Of a DNA stretch of 64,000 nt, positions 10,436 to 47,688 are shown in pieces; position 1 is the first letter of the stretch, and the number at the start of each line of letters is the position of its first letter. The notes under the pieces are model-generated. The model worked only from the letters and a program-made list of their open reading frames with translations. It did no database searches and was not told the DNA's origin. Position numbers and translations under genes: made by a program. This DNA comes from Escherichia coli (GTDB lineage: Bacteria > Pseudomonadota > Gammaproteobacteria > Enterobacterales > Enterobacteriaceae), in assembly GCF_003334335.1 (NCBI RefSeq), contig NZ_QOWQ01000011.1. One strand, 5' to 3'.

Positions 10436-10585
10436 GACTCCTCCAGTGAGAAAATAGAGCAAAAAGATAAGTATAGATGCTGGAGGAGGGGCGATTTTAA
10501 ATGAGAGGAATCTGGTGTGCCTCCCTTTCGGGTGAAAGGGAGGAAGGGATATTAAGCAGGTTGCTGACAACGTGCGGGCTTTTTT

Positions 10586-15970: not shown

Positions 15971-17552
15971 AAGGTTTCGGGTCGAAAATATCGGTTCCGA
16001 GATGGTTGTAATCCACCTTCTGTAACTGGAAGTTGGTGATGTATATCGGCCCGGCTTTCTTCTCAGATATAAACGGGTATTTGATGTTAATTTCCTTCGC
16101 TTTAATCCCCGTCCACTGGGAGAAAAAGCCTAAGAAGTCATTGGCTGAGCGGCGGGCTTTAATCACACGATGCGCTTTATCGTCGCTGGAAATGACCATA
16201 AAAGGCACCTGGAAATTTTGCTGATATTTATCATCATGGGCAAGGTATTGCACGTCTTTACCGCGCTCTTTAAAGGCCAGACCGTGGTCAGAAAAGTAAA
16301 CCAGCGAGAAGCTGCTGCCGCTGTTGCGTAACTGATCGTACAGCTTGCGCAGTAAATCGTCCGTTTGCGTCATGGTATAGAGATAGCACGACGTTTCTTT
16401 CGATTGCACAAAGGTTTCGTATTTTCCTTGTGTCCTGTCGCAGGCCTGCGGATGTGAGCCCATCAGATGTAGAACAATCAGCTGCGGTTGCGAGTGCTCT
16501 TGCGCCAGCACTTGAGCGGTCATATCCAGTAACGCTTCGTCTTTGGTGTTTTTATCTGCTTCAAAATTACCTTCTTTCAGGAAGTACACTTCATCTGCTC
16601 GTTTGGCGATGCTGGCGATAGCGGTATCGTATTCGCCGATTTGACCCTGGTTGGAAAACCACCAGGTCTGGAAGCCCGCGCGATTTGCCAGGGTGACAAA
16701 GTTATCCTGAAACTGTGGTTTGCCATCGACAACGCGATTGAGCGTTAAGCCAAGCGATTTCTGCGTGGAGCCACTGGCGGCAATGTAGTCAGCAAATATC
16801 AAACCGTTAACGCTGCTGGCAAACGGGGTATTGTCCCAGTGACCGCCAAAGGCACCGAGGGCATCGCGACGCGCGCTTTCACCGATCACCACCACATAGG
16901 TCTGATACTTCGGCTTAACGGCAGTGACCGTCCAGGTATCTTTCATTCCGGAAAGTTTTGCCATCCGTTCTTGCTCTTCAATCACCTCGTTATTATTGAC
17001 GATGACATCCTTAGCAAAACGAAATACCGGATAGCCAGTATCTTTCAGTTTAAATACGCCACCCCAGGCCAGGTTTTGCACGGGAGCAACAAAAAATGTC
17101 GCCACACTGAATACCAGACACAGGCTGTCGAAGGTATTCCAGCGCGCTTTTTCATTCTCTTTTTTTCGCCTGATTGCTATTACGCCGAGCGCAAAAATAA
17201 ATAAGCCGACCAGGTAGCTGTACCACGGAAAAATCGTCAGGATTTCGGTCGACTCTTCCATATTGGTGGAGTGCAATGCCAGCAATGTATTGAAATTAGG
17301 CGCGCCGTAGGCCTGAGCAAAAGGGAAATAACAAGCCGCCACCAGCGAACTGACACCGACCAGAACTTTTTGTACGCGAGGCAATGTTCGCCATAGCAAA
17401 AGCAAAATAGCCGTAAACGCAGCGGTGTAGAGCAAACTGAAGGGGTAACCTAAGCCGAGGTTAATTAATAGCGACTGTAAAAAGTAGAACGCAGTCCACG
17501 GGCTAAATACCCGGCTACGGGTAACAAGCGATTCTTTGAGGGTTAAATTCAT
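15969..17552 (-). CDS. opgE: Phosphoethanolamine transferase (OPG modification), sulfatase-like
   Basis: 527-aa ORF; N-terminal TM segments plus sulfatase-type domain; recognised OpgE/YbiP. Confidence 0.93.
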   Translation of the reverse strand: MNLTLKESLVTRSRVFSPWTAFYFLQSLLINLGLGYPFSLLYTAAFTAILLLLWRTLPRVQKVLVGVSSLVAACYFPFAQAYGAPNFNTLLALHSTNMEESTEILTIFPWYSYLVGLFIFALGVIAIRRKKENEKARWNTFDSLCLVFSVATFFVAPVQNLAWGGVFKLKDTGYPVFRFAKDVIVNNNEVIEEQERMAKLSGMKDTWTVTAVKPKYQTYVVVIGESARRDALGAFGGHWDNTPFASSVNGLIFADYIAASGSTQKSLGLTLNRVVDGKPQFQDNFVTLANRAGFQTWWFSNQGQIGEYDTAIASIAKRADEVYFLKEGNFEADKNTKDEALLDMTAQVLAQEHSQPQLIVLHLMGSHPQACDRTQGKYETFVQSKETSCYLYTMTQTDDLLRKLYDQLRNSGSSFSLVYFSDHGLAFKERGKDVQYLAHDDKYQQNFQVPFMVISSDDKAHRVIKARRSANDFLGFFSQWTGIKAKEINIKYPFISEKKAGPIYITNFQLQKVDYNHLGTDIFDPKP

Positions 17553-22510: not shown

Positions 22511-22570
22511 GTGATTATCCGTCACCCCGATACTGTCGGGGTGACGGCGGCTGATGACAAATGCAAAATA

Positions 22571-22670
22571 GCCTGATGCGCTACGCTTATCAGGCCTACG
22601 CAGTACCTGCAATATATTGAATCTGCAGGACTTTGTAGGCCGGATAAGGCGTTAACGCCGCATCAGGCAT
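22571..22670. repeat. REP/BIME element
   Basis: gcctgatgcgctacgcttatcaggcctac ... tgtaggccggataaggcgttaacgccgcatcaggcat. Confidence 0.85.
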
Positions 22671-22750
22671 TAACAAAGCGCATTTGTCAGCAATCTGAGT
22701 AACGTCGAATCGATTTTCTTAATCCCACATCAATTCACTTCCATTAATTC

Positions 22751-24016
22751 TCAAACATCCATGCCCAACGCTCGCTTACCGTGAATGTTGAGGTCGGCAA
22801 GCGTAAAGCGTCCTTCCCAGTTTGTTTCATAGTCCTCGCGCGGGAAGTCGCCCGGTGATGCGCCTTTTTCCAGTGCGGCCTTCACCTTGTGCGCGTAGGC
22901 AAGATTTTTCTCGCACATCGGTGCCGCAGGAATGTACATCACGTTGCCCCAACCTTGTTGATTTTCAACGGGGGCAACGGAATGGATGACGTCGCAGTGC
23001 CACCAGACGGAGTCTCCGGCTTCGAGTTTTGGAATGCTGGTTAACGCCTCAATCAACAGTGGATGCCATTGCTCTGATACCGGCAATACTCTTCCGGGCG
23101 CTACGCCGCACAGTTCATCCTCCGGCACATCATCAAGCAGCGGACGTAACAGTACGTACGCCATAGCTTCAGGAATGGGCACGACGTGCAGCAGCCCCTG
23201 ACCAGGCAGCATATCAGAGAGCGCTGTCCAGCCCTGGAATGTCCGAAACACGGAACATTTGGTGGTGTTGTCCACCGTGTACTCTTCAACTTCCGTACGA
23301 TGTGCCGCATGCCAGGGATCATATTGCGCCAGATTGCCATTAAAGACGTTGGCGAAAACGCGCTGATACGCTGGAAGCAGCCAGCGTTCCAGTGCCCCGG
23401 AGTCGGTATGCGCTCCAAGACCTTTGGAGGTCGTTCCGGGCGGACGGCGGCGGATACGGTCAGGGTAGATGACGCTCACATCCGGGTTAAACCATTGCTT
23501 TCCATCACTTTCAAATGTCCACAGACGATTGAGAAACGACTGCGCATTCGCCATTTCTTCACTCTGGCGGGCCTGCATTTGCGCCTGCGACCAGTAGATG
23601 GGGTAAATCTCGGGACGTGAAGCGCTGAGCGTCCCGAAGAAATTATCGCCGGGGCCTTTGTAGACCTCGTCAAAGCGGTTGCGGTCCAGATAGTCCAGCA
23701 TCGACTGATCCCAGCCTAGCGCTTGTTCGCGGGGGAAATGGCCTTTTATCACCGCACAACCGCGACGTTTAATCTGTTCGCGCTGCTCTGCAGTAACATG
23801 ACCTGCTTTGATATCGGCATAAGACAGCACCGGCCAGACGGTATCGCCCTGTGCTTTGAGTGCGTTGATTTCAGCCACTCGCGTGGCAATGTCATCGCTT
23901 AGCTGATTAAAGATCTGCTGGACGTCGCCAAGCTGCGCCCGCAGCGCGTGCTTCATCTGACGGATAGCTGCTTTGTGATCGGCAGGCAATGTGTCGCTGG
24001 TAAAAGTAGAAGCCAT
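22751..24016 (-). CDS. ybiU: DUF1479-family protein of unknown function
   Basis: Start trimmed to MASTFTSDTLPADHK (421 aa); recognised YbiU. Confidence 0.88.
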   Translation of the reverse strand: MASTFTSDTLPADHKAAIRQMKHALRAQLGDVQQIFNQLSDDIATRVAEINALKAQGDTVWPVLSYADIKAGHVTAEQREQIKRRGCAVIKGHFPREQALGWDQSMLDYLDRNRFDEVYKGPGDNFFGTLSASRPEIYPIYWSQAQMQARQSEEMANAQSFLNRLWTFESDGKQWFNPDVSVIYPDRIRRRPPGTTSKGLGAHTDSGALERWLLPAYQRVFANVFNGNLAQYDPWHAAHRTEVEEYTVDNTTKCSVFRTFQGWTALSDMLPGQGLLHVVPIPEAMAYVLLRPLLDDVPEDELCGVAPGRVLPVSEQWHPLLIEALTSIPKLEAGDSVWWHCDVIHSVAPVENQQGWGNVMYIPAAPMCEKNLAYAHKVKAALEKGASPGDFPREDYETNWEGRFTLADLNIHGKRALGMDV

Positions 24017-24167
24017 AACCACCTCTCATTAACTTTCATTCGAAACCATTCTGATTTGCATGTGACAATATAAGTTATAAATAAGTTAATGCAAGTTTAA
24101 TGATTTGATGTGATGTACAGGATGTAAAAAGAAGGGAAAACCGGAGCGCACGGCTCCGGTAGAGAGG

Positions 24168-24983
24168 TCAGCTGTTAAAAGGGGATGTGTTATCCAGCAC
24201 CGCCTGAATCACATTCAGCGCGCCTTCATGATTATTATCATCGGTAGCGTAACGGGCGATTTGTTTAATGTTTTCCGCAGCATTGCCCATCGCAAAGGAA
24301 TAACGCGCCATTTTCAGCATCTCCGCATCGTTACCGCTGTCGCCAATCGCTACCACATTTTGCGGTGACAGATCCCAGCGTTTCAGTAACCGCGAAATAC
24401 CGTTTGCTTTATGTAGACCGGGAATAATCAGGTCGATAAAGCCAAAACCACTGGTAACGGGTTTCATAATGCCATCGAGCGCTACGTGCAGTTTGTCGAT
24501 CACTAACGGGATTTGTTCATCCGGCAGGTTGAGCGAAAACTTGAACAGTACGTCGTCAATCTCCTGATAATCTTTTACAGGTTTCAGGCGATGGTAGTGT
24601 TTTGCCATCAGTGCGACAAATGCTTCGGGGGCATTTTCGCTGACATATGCACTTTGCAGACCGCAGGCGACAAAATTGAGTTGCTTATCTTTTAGCAACT
24701 CGCCAATAACAATCCGCGATTCATGTCGGGTCAGTTCGCCGTGGAACAACTGCTTGCCATGTTCGTAAACCAGTGCGCCGTTTTCCGCGACAAAAGAGAT
24801 CTCATCCTTTAGCTCAGGAAAGAATGAAATAAGCTGGTAATACTGATTACCGCTGGCAACAACGAACTTAATGCCGCGCTTTTTCAGTTCCTGATATTGC
24901 GCCATAAAACGTGGTTGGTTGTACGTTTTGGCGTCGTTAAGAAAAGTACCGTCCATGTCTGTGACGATAACTTTTACGCTCAT
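24168..24983 (-). CDS. ybiV: HAD-superfamily Cof-type sugar phosphatase
   Basis: 271 aa; HAD motif I DMDGT (VTDMDGTFL), GDSGND motif; paralog of ybjI in this window. Confidence 0.94.
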
Positions 24984-25128
24984 AGGTGTGCTCCTGGCTC
25001 GAAAATGAAACCGTAACAGTGTAATAACAATGTGACGCAGAGCACAAATTATATTTCGAATGAAAGTAAGGATGAAATTGATGATGTGAATGATTTAGCC
25101 CGGCGACGACGCCGCCGGGCCGAGGAGA

Positions 25129-27561
25129 TTACAGCATATGTTCAGTACGGGCGATGATATCGTCCTGAGCGTCTGGAGAGAGCGCGGTGAAGAACGCGGA
25201 ATAGCCCGCGACACGCACTACCAGATCGCGATACTGATCGGGATGTTTTTTCGCATCCAGCAGCGTTTCGCGGGAAACGATGTTGTACTGAATATGCCAG
25301 CCTTTATGCACTTCAAAGAAGGTACGCAGCAGGATCATCAGTTTCTGCTTGTCAGATTCGTTCTCCAGCGTTGCCGGATTCAGTTTCTGGTTGAGCAACA
25401 CGCCGCCGAGAATCGCTGCCGTAGGCAGTTTACCCACTGAGCCAATGACCGCAGTAGGGCCAAGATGGTCAGTACCGGAGGCCGGGCTTGCGCCTTCTGC
25501 CAGCGGGGTGTGGGCTTTACGCCCGTCCGGTGTTGCCATAGTCTGCGCGCCAAACGGTACGTTAGCGGAGATTGATGACGTACCCGCGTAATAGTTGCCG
25601 CCAACCGGACCACGACCGTAGCGCGGATTATGGTACTGTTTCAGTTCGTCGATATAGGTCTGATAAGCGCGAGCCAGCAGCGTATCGACAGTATCATCGT
25701 CGTTGCCGTACTTCGGCGCACCGTTAATCAGCCGCTGACGCAGCTGCTCGTGAGTCAGGCCGTCGAAGTCATCTGCCAGTGCGGCAGCAAGCTGTTGCTG
25801 ACCAATCGCACCTTGTTCAAACACCAGTTTCTTCACTGCCGCCAGGCTGTTGCCGAGGTTGGCAATGCCGACCTGCAGGCCAGAAACCCAGTCATATTTC
25901 GCGCCGCCTTGCTTGATACTTTTCGCTCGCTCAATACAGTCATCCACCAGCGCCGAGCAGAGAATATCGTGCACGTTCTCTTCCAGCATGGTGTCGACGA
26001 CATATTCGATTTCGATTGATTTGCGGGTGTAGTAACGGATTTGCGTATCCCACGCGTCCATCACTTCATCGAAGTTGTTGAAGTTACCTGCCGACAACGC
26101 TTTTTCTTGTGGCAGGAACACTTTGCCGCTGGTGGCATCATGCCCGCCTTCCAGCGCCGCCAGCATCACGCGGGCGAAGTTGATAAAGCTCATGCCGGTA
26201 CAGCGATAGCCCCATTTGCCACCGACGGCGGTTTCTATACAACCAATCGCTGCGTAGTCATAAGCGTCCTGCGGTTCAATACCGAGTTTAATAAATTCCG
26301 GGATCACGATTTCGTCGTTGTTGAACGCCGGCATCCCGAAGCCGCAACGGATCACCTGTACGCAGGCGTCGAGGAAATCGTTGCTCATTCCTGCATGGTA
26401 ACGCACGCTGAGGTTAGGCTGAGTGGAACGCAGGCGACCGCAGGATTCGAGGATCGCGTAAGAGAGTGGATTCACCGCGTCCATTGGTTGACCATCAACC
26501 AGATTTTGCCCGCCAATAGTGACGTTCTGATACAGCGGACTTCCCGCAGAGGCTTTTGAGTGTGAGCCGGAGCGGATCTTGTTCACTTCCAGCAGTTTCA
26601 GCCAGCAGCTATGCAGCATCTCGATGGCGTGTTCGCGATCCAGCGTCTGGTTGAGTTCAACGTCGCGGCGATAGTACGGGTAGAGATACTGGTCCATACG
26701 ACCAAACGATACTGAGTGACCGTTAGATTCGATCTGCAAAATCAACTGGATGAAGTAACACAGTTGCAGCGCCTGCCAGAAAGTCTGCGGCGGCTGGTGG
26801 GCGATAAGATCGCAGTTTTCTGCCATCGCCAGCAGTTCATCGCGACGGCTTTCGCGGGTTTCGGTCGCGGCCATTTCACGCGCCAGGGCAGCGAAACGTT
26901 CAATGTGTTCACTGACTGCCACCAGCACGATATCAATCGCTTTCAGGAATTGCTCACCGTGTAAATCTTCCAGCACCGTCAGGTTGATGCGCGAGCGACG
27001 TTCCGCTACTTTCTCGCGCAGACCATCAAGCCCTTTTTCCAGCAGCAGCGGGAAATTCACCGCCAGGTGCGCATCGCCGGAGGTCATATTGCCTTCCGCT
27101 TTAATGATTCCGGTCGCCAGCAGACCTTTTTGCTCATCGGTAAACATGCCGTAGCAGCGATCCTGTACGGTCTGACCGCGCCACCACGGGCACACTTCAT
27201 GCAGAACGCGTTTGTTCTCTTCGCTCACCGCAAAGCCAGCACCGGGACGATCTGCCAGATCATCAATCTCTTTTTCGATCCACGAGACAGTATATTCCGG
27301 GAAGATCGGCGCGGCGCGAACTTCGCTTGCCTGGTTGCCAATGATCAACTCATCGTGTTTGATCCAGATGGTGCGATTCGCCAGGTGATGCGCCAGTGCC
27401 AGCGCGCGACGTACCGGGATCGGCTTATCGAGATGTTGTTGATACATCTCGGTATAGTGCTGCGCGCGCTCGGTACAGACTGGCGGTTTCACAATATGCA
27501 CCAGCGCATTTTTGTGCGCTTTAATGCGGTCGCTGAGCGTGTCCAGTTTCAGTGTGGTCAT
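25129..27561 (-). CDS. ybiW: Glycyl radical enzyme (pyruvate formate-lyase-like; substrate unknown to me)
   Basis: 810 aa; C-terminal glycyl-radical signature RVAGYSA. Confidence 0.95.
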   Translation of the reverse strand: MTTLKLDTLSDRIKAHKNALVHIVKPPVCTERAQHYTEMYQQHLDKPIPVRRALALAHHLANRTIWIKHDELIIGNQASEVRAAPIFPEYTVSWIEKEIDDLADRPGAGFAVSEENKRVLHEVCPWWRGQTVQDRCYGMFTDEQKGLLATGIIKAEGNMTSGDAHLAVNFPLLLEKGLDGLREKVAERRSRINLTVLEDLHGEQFLKAIDIVLVAVSEHIERFAALAREMAATETRESRRDELLAMAENCDLIAHQPPQTFWQALQLCYFIQLILQIESNGHSVSFGRMDQYLYPYYRRDVELNQTLDREHAIEMLHSCWLKLLEVNKIRSGSHSKASAGSPLYQNVTIGGQNLVDGQPMDAVNPLSYAILESCGRLRSTQPNLSVRYHAGMSNDFLDACVQVIRCGFGMPAFNNDEIVIPEFIKLGIEPQDAYDYAAIGCIETAVGGKWGYRCTGMSFINFARVMLAALEGGHDATSGKVFLPQEKALSAGNFNNFDEVMDAWDTQIRYYTRKSIEIEYVVDTMLEENVHDILCSALVDDCIERAKSIKQGGAKYDWVSGLQVGIANLGNSLAAVKKLVFEQGAIGQQQLAAALADDFDGLTHEQLRQRLINGAPKYGNDDDTVDTLLARAYQTYIDELKQYHNPRYGRGPVGGNYYAGTSSISANVPFGAQTMATPDGRKAHTPLAEGASPASGTDHLGPTAVIGSVGKLPTAAILGGVLLNQKLNPATLENESDKQKLMILLRTFFEVHKGWHIQYNIVSRETLLDAKKHPDQYRDLVVRVAGYSAFFTALSPDAQDDIIARTEHML

Positions 27562-27566
27562 GGTTG

Positions 27567-28466
27567 TTATCCTCGTAAGGTCGCGGTTAACCCTTTCTGG
27601 CAGGCATACTGCTGGGCAAAGTCGAGCAGTTCTGGCGCATCAAGCGGTTTTTCCGGGGCGTCATAGGGCAGATTAAGTAAGTGATATTTGTTGATGCCCA
27701 GCGTGTGGTAGGGCAGAAAATGAATTTCGCCAACGTGCAGCTCGTCGGCGGCAAAATCGGTAATGGCTTTTACAGAGGTTTCGTCGGCATTAAAGCCCTG
27801 AATCAGCGGCACGCGGATAATGATTTTTTTGCCCGCTGCGGCGAGTTTTTTCAGGTTATCCAGCACTCTGGCGGCGTTACCGTCGGTCCACTGTTTAAAC
27901 GGCGCGTCGGCAACGTGTTTTAAATCGGCAAGAAACAGATCGATATAGGGCAGAGAAGGGGCGATATATTTCCACGGCACATGCAGACAGGTTTCTACCG
28001 CAGTATGAATGCCTGCCTCGTGGCTGGCTTGCAGTAGCGCCATCGCCATTTCCGGCTGCATAAAGGGCTCACCACCCGAAAGCGTTAAACCGCCGCCGCT
28101 GCGATCGTAAAACGGTTTATCGCGCAGAACGGTCGTCATGATCTCCTCAACGCTTTTCACTTCACCACACACGGTTAATGCCTGTGTCGGACAGCAGTCG
28201 GTTAACGCCGTCAGATGCTCCGGGGTTAACTTTTCCCGATGAATAAGCAAACCATTCAGCGCGCGCTCAATCACTTCCGGCGCGGCCTTAGCGCACAGCT
28301 CGCAGCCTTCCAGACACAGTCGTGCGTCATACAGCAGATCCTGCGTGCGGGCGCGGCTTTCCGGGTTCTGACACCAGCGGCAGCCCAGCGAACAGCCTTT
28401 AAGAAATACGACCGTGCGGATACCGGGGCCATCATGGGTCGAGTAGCGCTGAATATTGAAAATCAT
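27567..28466 (-). CDS. ybiY: Glycyl-radical-enzyme activating enzyme (radical SAM)
   Basis: Start trimmed to [18 protein letters not shown]; radical SAM CxxxCxxC (CSLGCRWC) plus extra Cys clusters; 5 nt upstream of ybiW on the same strand. Confidence 0.92.
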
Positions 28467-28596
28467 AGTTGCCTCTCTATTTCGTTCAAGCATTAAAATA
28501 CTTTCGAATGAAAGTTAGATTGATGTGCGTCAACTGTTCAGAGAGTTTTCCCGTGATAGTCTACATTCAGACAAAAAGTACATTTTGAGGATGGTT

Positions 28597-29259
28597 ATGG
28601 AACTGTATCTGGATACTTCAGACGTTGTTGCGGTGAAGGCGCTGTCACGTATTTTTCCGCTGGCGGGTGTGACCACTAACCCAAGCATTATCGCCGCGGG
28701 TAAAAAACCGCTGGATGTTGTGCTTCCGCAACTTCATGAAGCGATGGGCGGTCAGGGGCGTCTGTTTGCCCAGGTAATGGCTACCACTGCCGAAGGGATG
28801 GTTAATGACGCGCTTAAGCTGCGTTCTATTATTGCGGATATCGTGGTGAAAGTTCCGGTGACCGCCGAGGGGCTGGCAGCTATTAAGATGTTAAAAGCGG
28901 AAGGGATTCCGACGCTGGGAACCGCGGTATATGGCGCAGCACAAGGGCTGCTGTCGGCGCTGGCAGGTGCGGAATATGTTGCGCCTTACGTTAATCGTAT
29001 TGATGCTCAGGGCGGTAGCGGCATTCAGACTGTGACCGACTTACACCAGTTATTGAAAATGCATGCGCCGCAGGCGAAAGTGCTGGCAGCGAGTTTCAAA
29101 ACCCCGCGTCAGGCGCTGGACTGCTTACTGGCAGGATGTGAATCAATTACTCTGCCACTGGATGTGGCACAACAGATGATTAGCTATCCGGCGGTTGATG
29201 CCGCTGTGGCGAAGTTTGAGCAGGACTGGCAGGGAGCGTTTGGCAGAACGTCGATTTAA
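28597..29259 (+). CDS. fsaA: Fructose-6-phosphate aldolase 1 (transaldolase-like)
   Basis: ORF-track start trimmed to [14 protein letters not shown] at 28597 (220 aa). Confidence 0.94.
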
Positions 29260-46929: not shown

Positions 46930-47688
46930 TTAATACATCAACTTAATGCGCTGCGTCTGCGCGTACTTCACATACTCATCTTCCGGGCAACAATCGCTCA
47001 CCACAATATCAAAGCGTTTCAGGTCACCCATGCGCGCCGGACGCACCTTGCCAAATTTACTGTGGTCGACAACCAGCACATGCTTTTGCGCCATCGACAT
47101 GGCCCAGTGTTTTACCGGCAACTCTTCAAGATTAAAACAGGTAGCGCCTTTACTGACATGCACGCCCGCCGCAGAATAAAAAGCGATATCCGGGCAAAAA
47201 TTATTCAGCGTTTGCTGAAAATCGATGGGTTTGAAAATGGCGTTGCTGGCGTGAAATTCACCACCGCAAAGAAACGCGCGGCAATGGGGTTTCTCTTTCA
47301 GCGCCAGAAAGGTATTTAGCGAATAACAAACGGCGGTAAAAGGGATTTCATTATCAATCGCTTCAATAATCCACGGCGTGGTGGTGCCACAGTCAAAAAA
47401 GAGGGTCTGATCGGGTTCTACCAGCGTCGCAGCCAGTTTTGCCGCCCGGCGTTTTTCTTCCACCAGGCGGGATTTTTGATCGCTTAACAGGTAATGGCTG
47501 GCACTGCGCGGTTCCAGAACAATATAGCCGCCGAGCAAAACGACGGGCGCACTGTGGTTGTTCAGATCGCGACGAATCGTCATCTCCGAAACCCCAAGCA
47601 GGGCGGCGGCGTCTTTAAGATGTAACTTATCGCTGCGTTTTAATTCTTGCAGCAGCTGCCCGATACGCTCTTCGCGACGTGTTTCCAT
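46930..47688 (-). CDS. deoR: DeoR-family transcriptional repressor of deoxyribonucleoside catabolism
   Basis: 252 aa; N-terminal HTH, C-terminal sugar-phosphate-binding domain. Confidence 0.95.
   Translation of the reverse strand: METRREERIGQLLQELKRSDKLHLKDAAALLGVSEMTIRRDLNNHSAPVVLLGGYIVLEPRSASHYLLSDQKSRLVEEKRRAAKLAATLVEPDQTLFFDCGTTTPWIIEAIDNEIPFTAVCYSLNTFLALKEKPHCRAFLCGGEFHASNAIFKPIDFQQTLNNFCPDIAFYSAAGVHVSKGATCFNLEELPVKHWAMSMAQKHVLVVDHSKFGKVRPARMGDLKRFDIVVSDCCPEDEYVKYAQTQRIKLMY

Follow-up and report, generated by a model that had tools for sequence, protein, structure and literature searches.

What metabolic purpose would bring a glycyl-radical enzyme (GRE) and its activating enzyme next to a fructose-6-phosphate aldolase (FSA) is the question raised by the genes ybiU, ybiV, ybiW, ybiY and fsaA, which lie together in a 64-kb stretch of Escherichia coli DNA (contig NZ_QOWQ01000011.1; termed the window in the following). 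A reading of the letters without database searches (the original prediction) had regarded ybiW-ybiY as an orphan module within an under-described system, and had suggested an anaerobic phosphosugar pathway in which the GRE product is cleaved by FSA. The core function of the locus is already published (Ma et al. 2024), and the suggested pathway agrees with the published one as a later account (PMC12441222) presents it; the terms orphan and under-described have to be withdrawn, since both the substrate and the structures appeared in 2024. Taken as a whole, including the wiring by the repressor YciT and by FNR proposed below, the locus is very probably the 1,5-anhydroglucitol (AG) catabolic locus of E. 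coli.

The 1,5-Anhydroglucitol Pathway

According to Ma et al. (2024, JACS 146:26187), as related in PMC12441222, YbiW cleaves AG 6-phosphate (AG6P) to give 1-deoxyfructose-6-phosphate, and PflD turns 1,5-anhydromannitol-6-phosphate into the same product. The same source states that both anhydro sugars are phosphorylated by a phosphotransferase system (PTS), that the reaction of YbiW and PflD is of the glycyl-radical type and oxygen-sensitive, and that E. coli and many gut bacteria are thereby able to grow on AG under anaerobic conditions. In addition, published data indicate that the YbiW protein is strongly increased in Shigella in the pig gut.

The route encoded here, whose steps come from published biochemistry, would begin with the import of AG via the PTS, which would deliver AG6P into the cell. 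YbiY, a radical-S-adenosylmethionine (radical-SAM) activase, would place the radical on Gly786 of YbiW, which would then open the ring by radical C-O cleavage and convert AG6P into 1-deoxyfructose-6-phosphate. The latter would be split by FsaA into glyceraldehyde-3-phosphate and hydroxyacetone, and GldA would reduce hydroxyacetone to 1,2-propanediol; the original work reportedly describes these two steps in the same way, with FsaA or FsaB as the aldolase. FSA accepts hydroxyacetone as an aldol donor, which fits the FsaA step. An equivalent route for 1,5-anhydromannitol would be provided by the second E. coli locus, which contains pflD-pflC, fsaB-gldA and the frw genes.

Four of the five proteins (YbiW, YbiY, FsaA and YbiV) exceeded the curated NCBIfam cutoffs. 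YbiW scored 1410.9 bits against TIGR01774, the PFL2/glycerol-dehydratase subfamily of GREs (cutoff 678.2), PF02901 and PF01228 are present on its cluster representative, and the Protein Data Bank (PDB) entries 8id7_A and 8yjn_A, both named 'YbiW', match it over residues 1-810 with 1863 bits (the structure of PflD is 8yjo). Its glycyl-radical loop RVAGYSA occupies residues 783-789 with Gly786, and the single-Cys loop GCIE (Cys, x, Glu) is located at residues 440-443. YbiY reached 370.2 bits against TIGR02494, the model for GRE activases (cutoff 174.35), and carries CSLGCRWC at residues 25-32 (Cys 25, 29 and 32) and a second cluster, CLEGCELC, at residues 51-58 (Cys 51, 55 and 58); the RVAGYSA and CxxxCxxC motifs named in the original prediction are both borne out. 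FsaA obtained 451.5 bits against NF009296 (cutoff 306), with the Schiff-base Lys85 situated within VVKVP in this NF009296/TIGR00875 family. YbiV gained 221.3 bits against TIGR00099 (cutoff 137), is identical to PDB 1rlm/2hf2, and holds the DxD nucleophile motif as DMDGT at residues 9-13.

Conservation of the Gene Neighbourhood

The synteny scan comprised 80 Enterobacterales loci, one genome per species, in which YbiW displays 85-99% identity, and the linkage claim is confined to this order. The gene ybiY stands immediately upstream of ybiW in all 80 loci, and of the 78 loci whose upstream sequence suffices, 66 have fsaA adjacent and divergent to ybiY. The neighbourhood seen in E. coli (moeAB ... 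ybiVU-ybiT) recurs in 63 of the 80 loci, which should be counted as approximately one event because all of them have it. The ybiY-ybiW pair was found relocated in 17 loci, into the contexts orn/rsgA/psd, pdeR/yciT/pyrF and several unique ones, where fsaA stays with the pair in 16 cases, ybiV in none and ybiU in two (L067 and L081), both ybiU and ybiV being missing in the other 15. The linkage of GRE, activase and FSA genes, whose conservation the original prediction had proposed to check, extends beyond E. coli and persists after relocation. The condition under which that prediction would have fallen, a lack of such linkage in other species, does not apply.

The most complete arrangement was observed in Rouxiella aceris (L067, 5074-19056), where a single cluster harbors a yciT-like gene, ybiU, fsaA, ybiY, ybiW, a ROK kinase gene and a GldA-family dehydrogenase gene, together with a second yciT-like gene, a gluP-type (glucose/galactose) MFS transporter gene and ptsG, so that nearly the whole pathway is assembled at one place. 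The gluP-type gene of this cluster has a TTTCATATGAAA site of its own upstream.

The gene fsaA is gone between moeB and ybiY in L014, L026, L033, L034, L036, L040, L041, L061, L071 and L072; such loci, from Klebsiella, Raoultella, Phytobacter, some Kosakonia and Enterobacter sp. (L036/L071), keep moeB-ybiY-ybiW-ybiV-ybiU where the sequence suffices. Five distant YbiW homologs, taken from 50%-identity representatives, are accompanied by kinases of the FGGY or ROK type, by regulators of the SorC or DeoR family and by epimerases. The nearest homolog outside the enterobacteria (54% identity; L084, 4110-15652, GCA_002841395.1) has no FSA gene within 8 kb, and its neighbours encode a kinase of the ROK type, a DeoR regulator, a Cof-type HAD protein, a member of the lyxose-isomerase family and a lactonase, together with another GRE and the activase belonging to it.

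Layout of the Locus

An 8-kb stretch covering the locus is 100% identical to E. coli chromosomes and was found in 5,426 of 5,426 complete genomes searched. In RefSeq, the annotated order in an identical strain is ybiT(+), ybiU-ybiV-ybiW-ybiY(-), fsa(+), moeB-moeA(-), which confirms the order of the ybi genes and their divergence from fsaA as originally described. The gene starts in Table 1 are PGAP calls mapped onto window coordinates, since the longest open reading frames begin too early for ybiY (28493), fsaA (28525) and ybiU (24022), where the curated starts are shorter. The 5-nt gap between the ybiY stop and the ybiW start (27562-27566) agrees with the value first given, and the divergent ybiY and fsaA are separated by 130 bp. 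The terminator-like hairpin with its T-run after ybiV indicates that ybiU is a separate transcription unit.

Table 1. Genes, regulatory elements and related plasmid sets of the ybi-fsaA locus (window positions unless a locus is named)
Feature	Position	Strand	Description
ybiU	22751-24016	-	Gig2-like/DUF1479 protein, PhyH-type Fe(II)/2-oxoglutarate-oxygenase fold
ybiV	24168-24983	-	Cof-type HAD-IIB sugar phosphatase; TIGR00099, PDB 1rlm/2hf2
ybiW	25129-27561	-	glycyl-radical 1,5-anhydroglucitol-6-phosphate lyase (ring-opening C-O cleavage); PDB 8id7/8yjn, TIGR01774
ybiY	27567-28466	-	radical-SAM activase of YbiW; TIGR02494, CX3CX2C
fsaA	28597-29259	+	fructose-6-phosphate aldolase; NF009296, Lys85
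Operator 1	28500-28515	.	ACTTTCGAATGAAAGT, perfect palindrome ACTTTC-N4-GAAAGT; core TTTCGAATGAAA 28502-28513; common to the divergent ybiY/fsaA promoters
Operator 2	25052-25067	-	core TTTCGAATGAAA 25054-25065; overlaps a perfect TATAAT -10 (25048-25053) upstream of ybiV
Operator 3	24032-24047	-	core TTTCGAATGAAA 24034-24045; between the putative ybiU promoter (TTGCAT/TATTGT) and the ybiU ribosome-binding site
Putative -10 TTTAAT of the ybiY-ybiW promoter	28492-28497	-	aTTTAAT block conserved in 68 aligned spacers
FNR-type box TTGATgtgcGTCAA	28520-28533	.	9/10 to consensus; putative function
Intrinsic-terminator-like hairpin and T-run	24140-24160	-	just 3' of the ybiV stop, between ybiV and ybiU
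Plasmid HAD/YbiU/YciT sets (Pantoea) and YbiU/YciT set (Duffyella)	L092 5925-9089; L094 5956-9055; L096 5001-7107		without GRE

Several further elements were noticed in the spacers. A GC-rich hairpin, GCCCGGCG-N7-CGCCGGGC, at 25098-25120 (-), lies directly 3' of the ybiW stop without a T-run, and could act as a weak terminator or stabilise the mRNA ahead of the ybiV promoter. The ybiT-ybiU spacer (window 22560-22680; L091 1290-2270) consists of a repetitive extragenic palindromic (REP) or bacterial interspersed mosaic element (BIME), which explains the many partial matches per genome when the 8-kb stretch was searched against genomes; the only match of the Rfam scan, the REP-derived ES036 at 22592-22634 (-), belongs to this spacer, and in some E. 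coli strains a copy of IS621 (IS110 family) sits there. In one NCBI assembly, a 1047-residue protein call joins YbiW (100% identity, 92% of the query) to HAD domains, which is probably a YbiW-YbiV read-through resulting from a deletion or an assembly error.

Regulation by YciT and Putative Regulation by FNR

In 2021, Gao and colleagues (NAR 49:9696) located ChIP-exo peaks of YciT at ybiV and at ybiY/fsaA and derived a palindromic binding motif, and their paper refers to ybiU, ybiV, ybiW, ybiY and fsaA as an 'uncharacterized pathway'. In their RNA-seq of a yciT deletion, the log2 fold changes amounted to +7.7 for ybiY, +7.0 for ybiU (~130-fold up), +3.5 for ybiW, +2.2 for ybiV and +1.8 for fsaA, and ybiU had by far the highest read count. 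Moreover, 13 of the 17 relocated modules have directly beside them a gene for a 250-residue DeoR-family protein, with 57-78% identity to E. coli YciT and a score above the NCBIfam YciT cutoff; six of these 13 have the module inside the yciT-yciH-pyrF locus, where E. coli has yciT alone.

The 12-mer TTTCGAATGAAA occurs in exactly three copies in the window, only upstream of ybiY/fsaA, ybiV and ybiU, for a chance expectation of ~0.01 exact copies when both strands (128 kb) are counted. This 12-mer probably represents the operator of YciT, which is a well-supported assignment. Across the synteny set, TTTC-N4-GAAA keeps its place: 77 of 80 loci have it at a fixed distance upstream of ybiY, 56 of 58 have it 72-78 nt upstream of ybiV, and 55 of 57 have it 14-32 nt upstream of ybiU. 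Judged from these sequences, the five genes would constitute one regulon of the DeoR-type repressor YciT, with three conserved operators, one for each transcription unit.

After conversion, the coordinates of the weaker peaks that Gao et al. listed for ybiO and ompX coincide directly with TTTC-N4/5-GAAA palindromes. The palindromes exactly under them, CCTTTCGGGTGAAAGG (10524-10539, near ybiO) and GGTTTCGGGTCGAAAA (~15975-15990, downstream of ompX), are weaker relatives of the ybi operator. A second DeoR-family gene of the window, at 46993-47655 (-), shows 27% identity to YciT, is not beside the module and is probably deoR itself.

Alignment of 68 distinct ybiY-fsaA spacers revealed two nearly invariant blocks, namely TTGA-N6-TCAA and the palindrome ACTTTC-N4-GAAAGT followed by aTTTAAT. 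TTGA-N6-TCAA, which is kept in at least 90% of these spacers and lies 4 bp from the palindrome, agrees with the FNR consensus in 9 of 10 positions for E. coli and in 10 of 10 for several species. The centre of this FNR-type box is 41.5 bp from the ybiY start implied by the putative -10 (class-II position), and ~42 bp from an fsaA start placed by a plausible extended -10. With TTTAAT as the -10, the operator 1 palindrome would span -30 to -15, a typical position for a repressor. All these promoter calls rest on conservation, not on a generic promoter scan. The sequence scan found no FNR-like box at the ybiV and ybiU promoters, the box being restricted to ybiY/fsaA. A class-II FNR site would limit only the oxygen-sensitive ybiYW/fsaA pair to anaerobiosis, and ybiV and ybiU would be transcribed from FNR-independent promoters of their own.

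The Second E. coli Locus

The original prediction had placed fsaB near pflD-pflC in the frw region, and this was found to be so in K-12, where gldA-fsaB-ptsA is divergent from frwC-frwB-pflD-pflC-frwD. The GRE/activase/FSA linkage does occur twice in E. coli, as had been claimed, but block duplication of both loci is ruled out by the unequal identities of the paralogs (70% for FsaA/FsaB, 37.6% for YbiW/PflD and 35.9% for YbiY/PflC). These values imply that the aldolase was duplicated or recruited much later than the GRE and its activase, which argues for a function-driven linkage. The frw/pflD promoter region (the K-12 ptsA-frwC spacer, L001 8223-8530) contains neither a YciT operator nor an FNR-like box; common regulation of both loci is thereby ruled out, and the two anhydro-sugar loci are wired differently. 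An AraC-type gene, yijO, is situated at the end of the frw/pflD cluster.

Weighing of the Evidence

Several points weigh against the assignment as a regulated AG locus. The FsaA and GldA steps depend on what the original work reportedly describes, on a secondary summary and on the known use of hydroxyacetone as a donor by FSA. Twelve loci, mostly from Klebsiella, Raoultella, Phytobacter and Kosakonia, are without fsaA beside ybiY, and the five distant YbiW homologs (43-54% identity) have no FSA gene within reach, most of their contigs being short. The generic promoter scan returned five matches for 5.4 expected, the sole match near ybiY overlapping the start codon, and the converted ChIP-exo peak coordinates for ybiV and ybiY are displaced by 100-150 bp from the operators, with operator 1 being ~100 bp off. 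Furthermore, the literature search provided no transcription-start or FNR-binding data, nor usable anaerobic expression data, for ybiY, ybiW and fsaA.

This lack of FNR-binding data also lends itself to the view that TTGA-N6-TCAA is a site for a CRP-family or other regulator, or part of an extended YciT operator, in which case control by oxygen would be exerted only post-translationally, through quenching of the radical. The closeness of the box to the YciT palindrome, only 4 bp away, and the several half-sites common among DeoR-type repressors can be read in the same direction; the agreement with the FNR consensus (9/10 in E. coli, 10/10 in several species), the distance of 41.5 bp to the start implied by the conserved -10, and the absence of the box from the ybiV and ybiU operators despite their common YciT core render such an explanation unlikely. 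A far more improbable proposal, to which we attach next to no weight, is that YbiW acts as a reserve pyruvate or 2-ketoacid formate-lyase to which fsaA is merely adjacent. The K-12 RefSeq annotation still reads 'putative pyruvate formate lyase', and YbiW has been grouped with PflB and TdcE in papers, whereas YbiW yields 550 bits against the B12-independent glycerol dehydratase and only 154 bits against pyruvate formate-lyase (PFL; PDB 1h16), which makes the label wrong, and its 165 bits against the PFL equivalog are far under the cutoff of 994. The active site of PFL is a Cys-Cys pair, in contrast to the single active-site Cys of GCIE in YbiW. The linkage with fsaA has been kept after relocation to many contexts, and the published AG6P activity contradicts a formate-lyase function.

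YbiU and YbiV

The published pathway, as summarised in PMC12441222, does not explain ybiU and ybiV. YbiU belongs to PF07350 of Pfam, now 'Gig2-like' and formerly DUF1479; no NCBIfam model matched it, and no function was reported in the literature searched. Its solved structure exhibits a double-stranded beta-helix fold closest to known Fe/2-oxoglutarate oxygenases (PhyH-like). In 11 sequences down to 46% identity, H203, D205, H340 and H345 of the HxD...H iron triad are invariant, the triad residues align with those of Gig2, and the Arg-rich loop (R187, R189-191), which could hold a phosphate, is invariant as well.

In a translated plasmid search, 79 Pantoea and three Duffyella megaplasmids yielded YbiU homologs with 67-74% identity. 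In the two Pantoea records inspected, a Cof-type HAD gene (51% identity to YbiV) and the YbiU-YciT pair point in divergent directions, and their vicinity is free of radical enzymes; the plasmid spacer of P. ananatis contains the exact TTTCGAATGAAA. A YbiU-YciT set is likewise carried by Duffyella. The genes yciT-ybiU-fsaA share a single strand in Rouxiella, and ybiU-yciT occurs in Mangrovibacter. These pairings indicate that the tie of YbiU to YciT is at least as tight as that of the radical enzyme to YciT. A word-index search for distant YbiU homologs gave only Enterobacterales matches of 85-99%, nearly all from Enterobacter, and the surroundings of the Burkholderia chromid homologs (45% identity) were uninformative or unannotated.

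It is possible, if rather doubtful, that an oxygen-compatible second arm under YciT only (ybiU and ybiV) stands beside the oxygen-sensitive arm under FNR and YciT (ybiY-ybiW and fsaA). YbiU might then hydroxylate C1 of AG6P or free AG to form glucose-6-phosphate or glucose, and the phosphatase YbiV might relieve or feed this step. This proposal is put forward because ybiU and ybiV carry the common operator and promoter elements of their own (sigma-70-like hexamers for ybiU and a perfect -10 for ybiV) with no FNR box, because deletion of yciT derepresses ybiU more abundantly than any other gene (Gao 2021), because ybiU-yciT pairs, with or without the HAD gene, occur free of the GRE on Erwiniaceae plasmids, and because the fold and iron triad of YbiU fit an oxygenase whose Arg-rich loop could bind a phosphate.

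Alternatively, ybiV and ybiU could be unrelated passengers downstream of ybiW in the Enterobacteriaceae with no role in anhydro-sugar metabolism. The loss of ybiV from all 17 relocated modules, and of ybiU from all except L067 and L081, accords with this view, as does the broad range of YbiV as a phosphatase, and the gene order of the E. coli type could go back to one accident that was then inherited. Passengers would hardly be expected to show what was observed here: each gene has its own operator copy at a fixed position (ybiV in 56/58 and ybiU in 55/57 loci), the loss of yciT derepresses both, ybiU is again found together with fsaA or yciT in Rouxiella and Mangrovibacter, and plasmids of Pantoea and Duffyella repeatedly carry HAD-YbiU-YciT or YbiU-YciT, the same operator being present in P. 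ananatis. A mere passenger status of the two genes is thus very unlikely.

Significance

The main finding brings no new biology, the 2024 discovery having been independently recovered from raw sequence, and the remaining interest resides in the roles of YbiU and YbiV and in the regulatory layout. AG is a sugar analogue of food and blood that serves as a clinical marker of glycaemia, and its 6-phosphate causes neutropenia in G6PC3 deficiency and in type Ib glycogen storage disease (GSD-Ib). A 2025 review states that no aerobic AG-metabolising enzyme has been found so far, and that a probiotic route to lower AG would need an enzyme working in air; if the proposal above were true, YbiU would be such an enzyme. 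Its candidacy is founded on the solved structure, the oxygenase fold, the co-repression by YciT with the anaerobic lyase, and the strong expression once derepressed. Meanwhile, the three operators and the FNR box supply a testable wiring diagram for YciT.

Comparison with Known Systems

Precedents exist for both steps proposed for the second arm. In the anhydrofructose pathway of Sinorhizobium morelense, as outlined in the 2025 review, C1 hydroxylation converts 1,5-anhydromannitol to mannose, which parallels the proposed YbiU step, although the rhizobial enzyme is described as P450-like. The repair of AG6P by human G6PC3 is a precedent for dephosphorylation by YbiV, but G6PC3 is not a HAD enzyme.

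With respect to the radical chemistry, YbiW shares the TIGR01774 subfamily with the B12-independent glycerol dehydratase and other GRE eliminases (PDB 1r8w and 5i2a; CutC, HypD), which likewise possess a loop with one Cys and a Glu, and whose activase bears additional ferredoxin-like clusters. It differs from them, according to the literature, in acting on a cyclic ether sugar phosphate by ring opening rather than by loss of water or an amine. The PflD-PflC/FsaB/GldA/Frw PTS locus (1,5-anhydromannitol-6-phosphate; PDB 8yjo) resembles the ybi locus in combining a GRE, an activase and an FSA paralog that lead to the same product, and, unlike the ybi locus, it has its own PTS and gldA.

The YciT regulon of Gao 2021, which belongs with the DeoR-family sugar-phosphate repressors, comprises the same repression of ybiY, ybiW, ybiV, ybiU and fsaA; that study assumed a single 'ybiUVWY operon' with a substrate not known to it, whereas the sequence shows three promoters with an operator each and, dividing ybiV from ybiU, a terminator-like hairpin. 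The closest system is the YbiW-YbiY/FsaA 'anhydroglycolysis' pathway described for E. coli MG1655 by Ma et al. (2024; PDB 8id7, 8yjn), with the identical locus and identical neighbours. Its core is without difference from that of the locus studied here; what the present analysis adds is the layout of three putative YciT operators, the FNR-type box and the pairing of ybiU with yciT.

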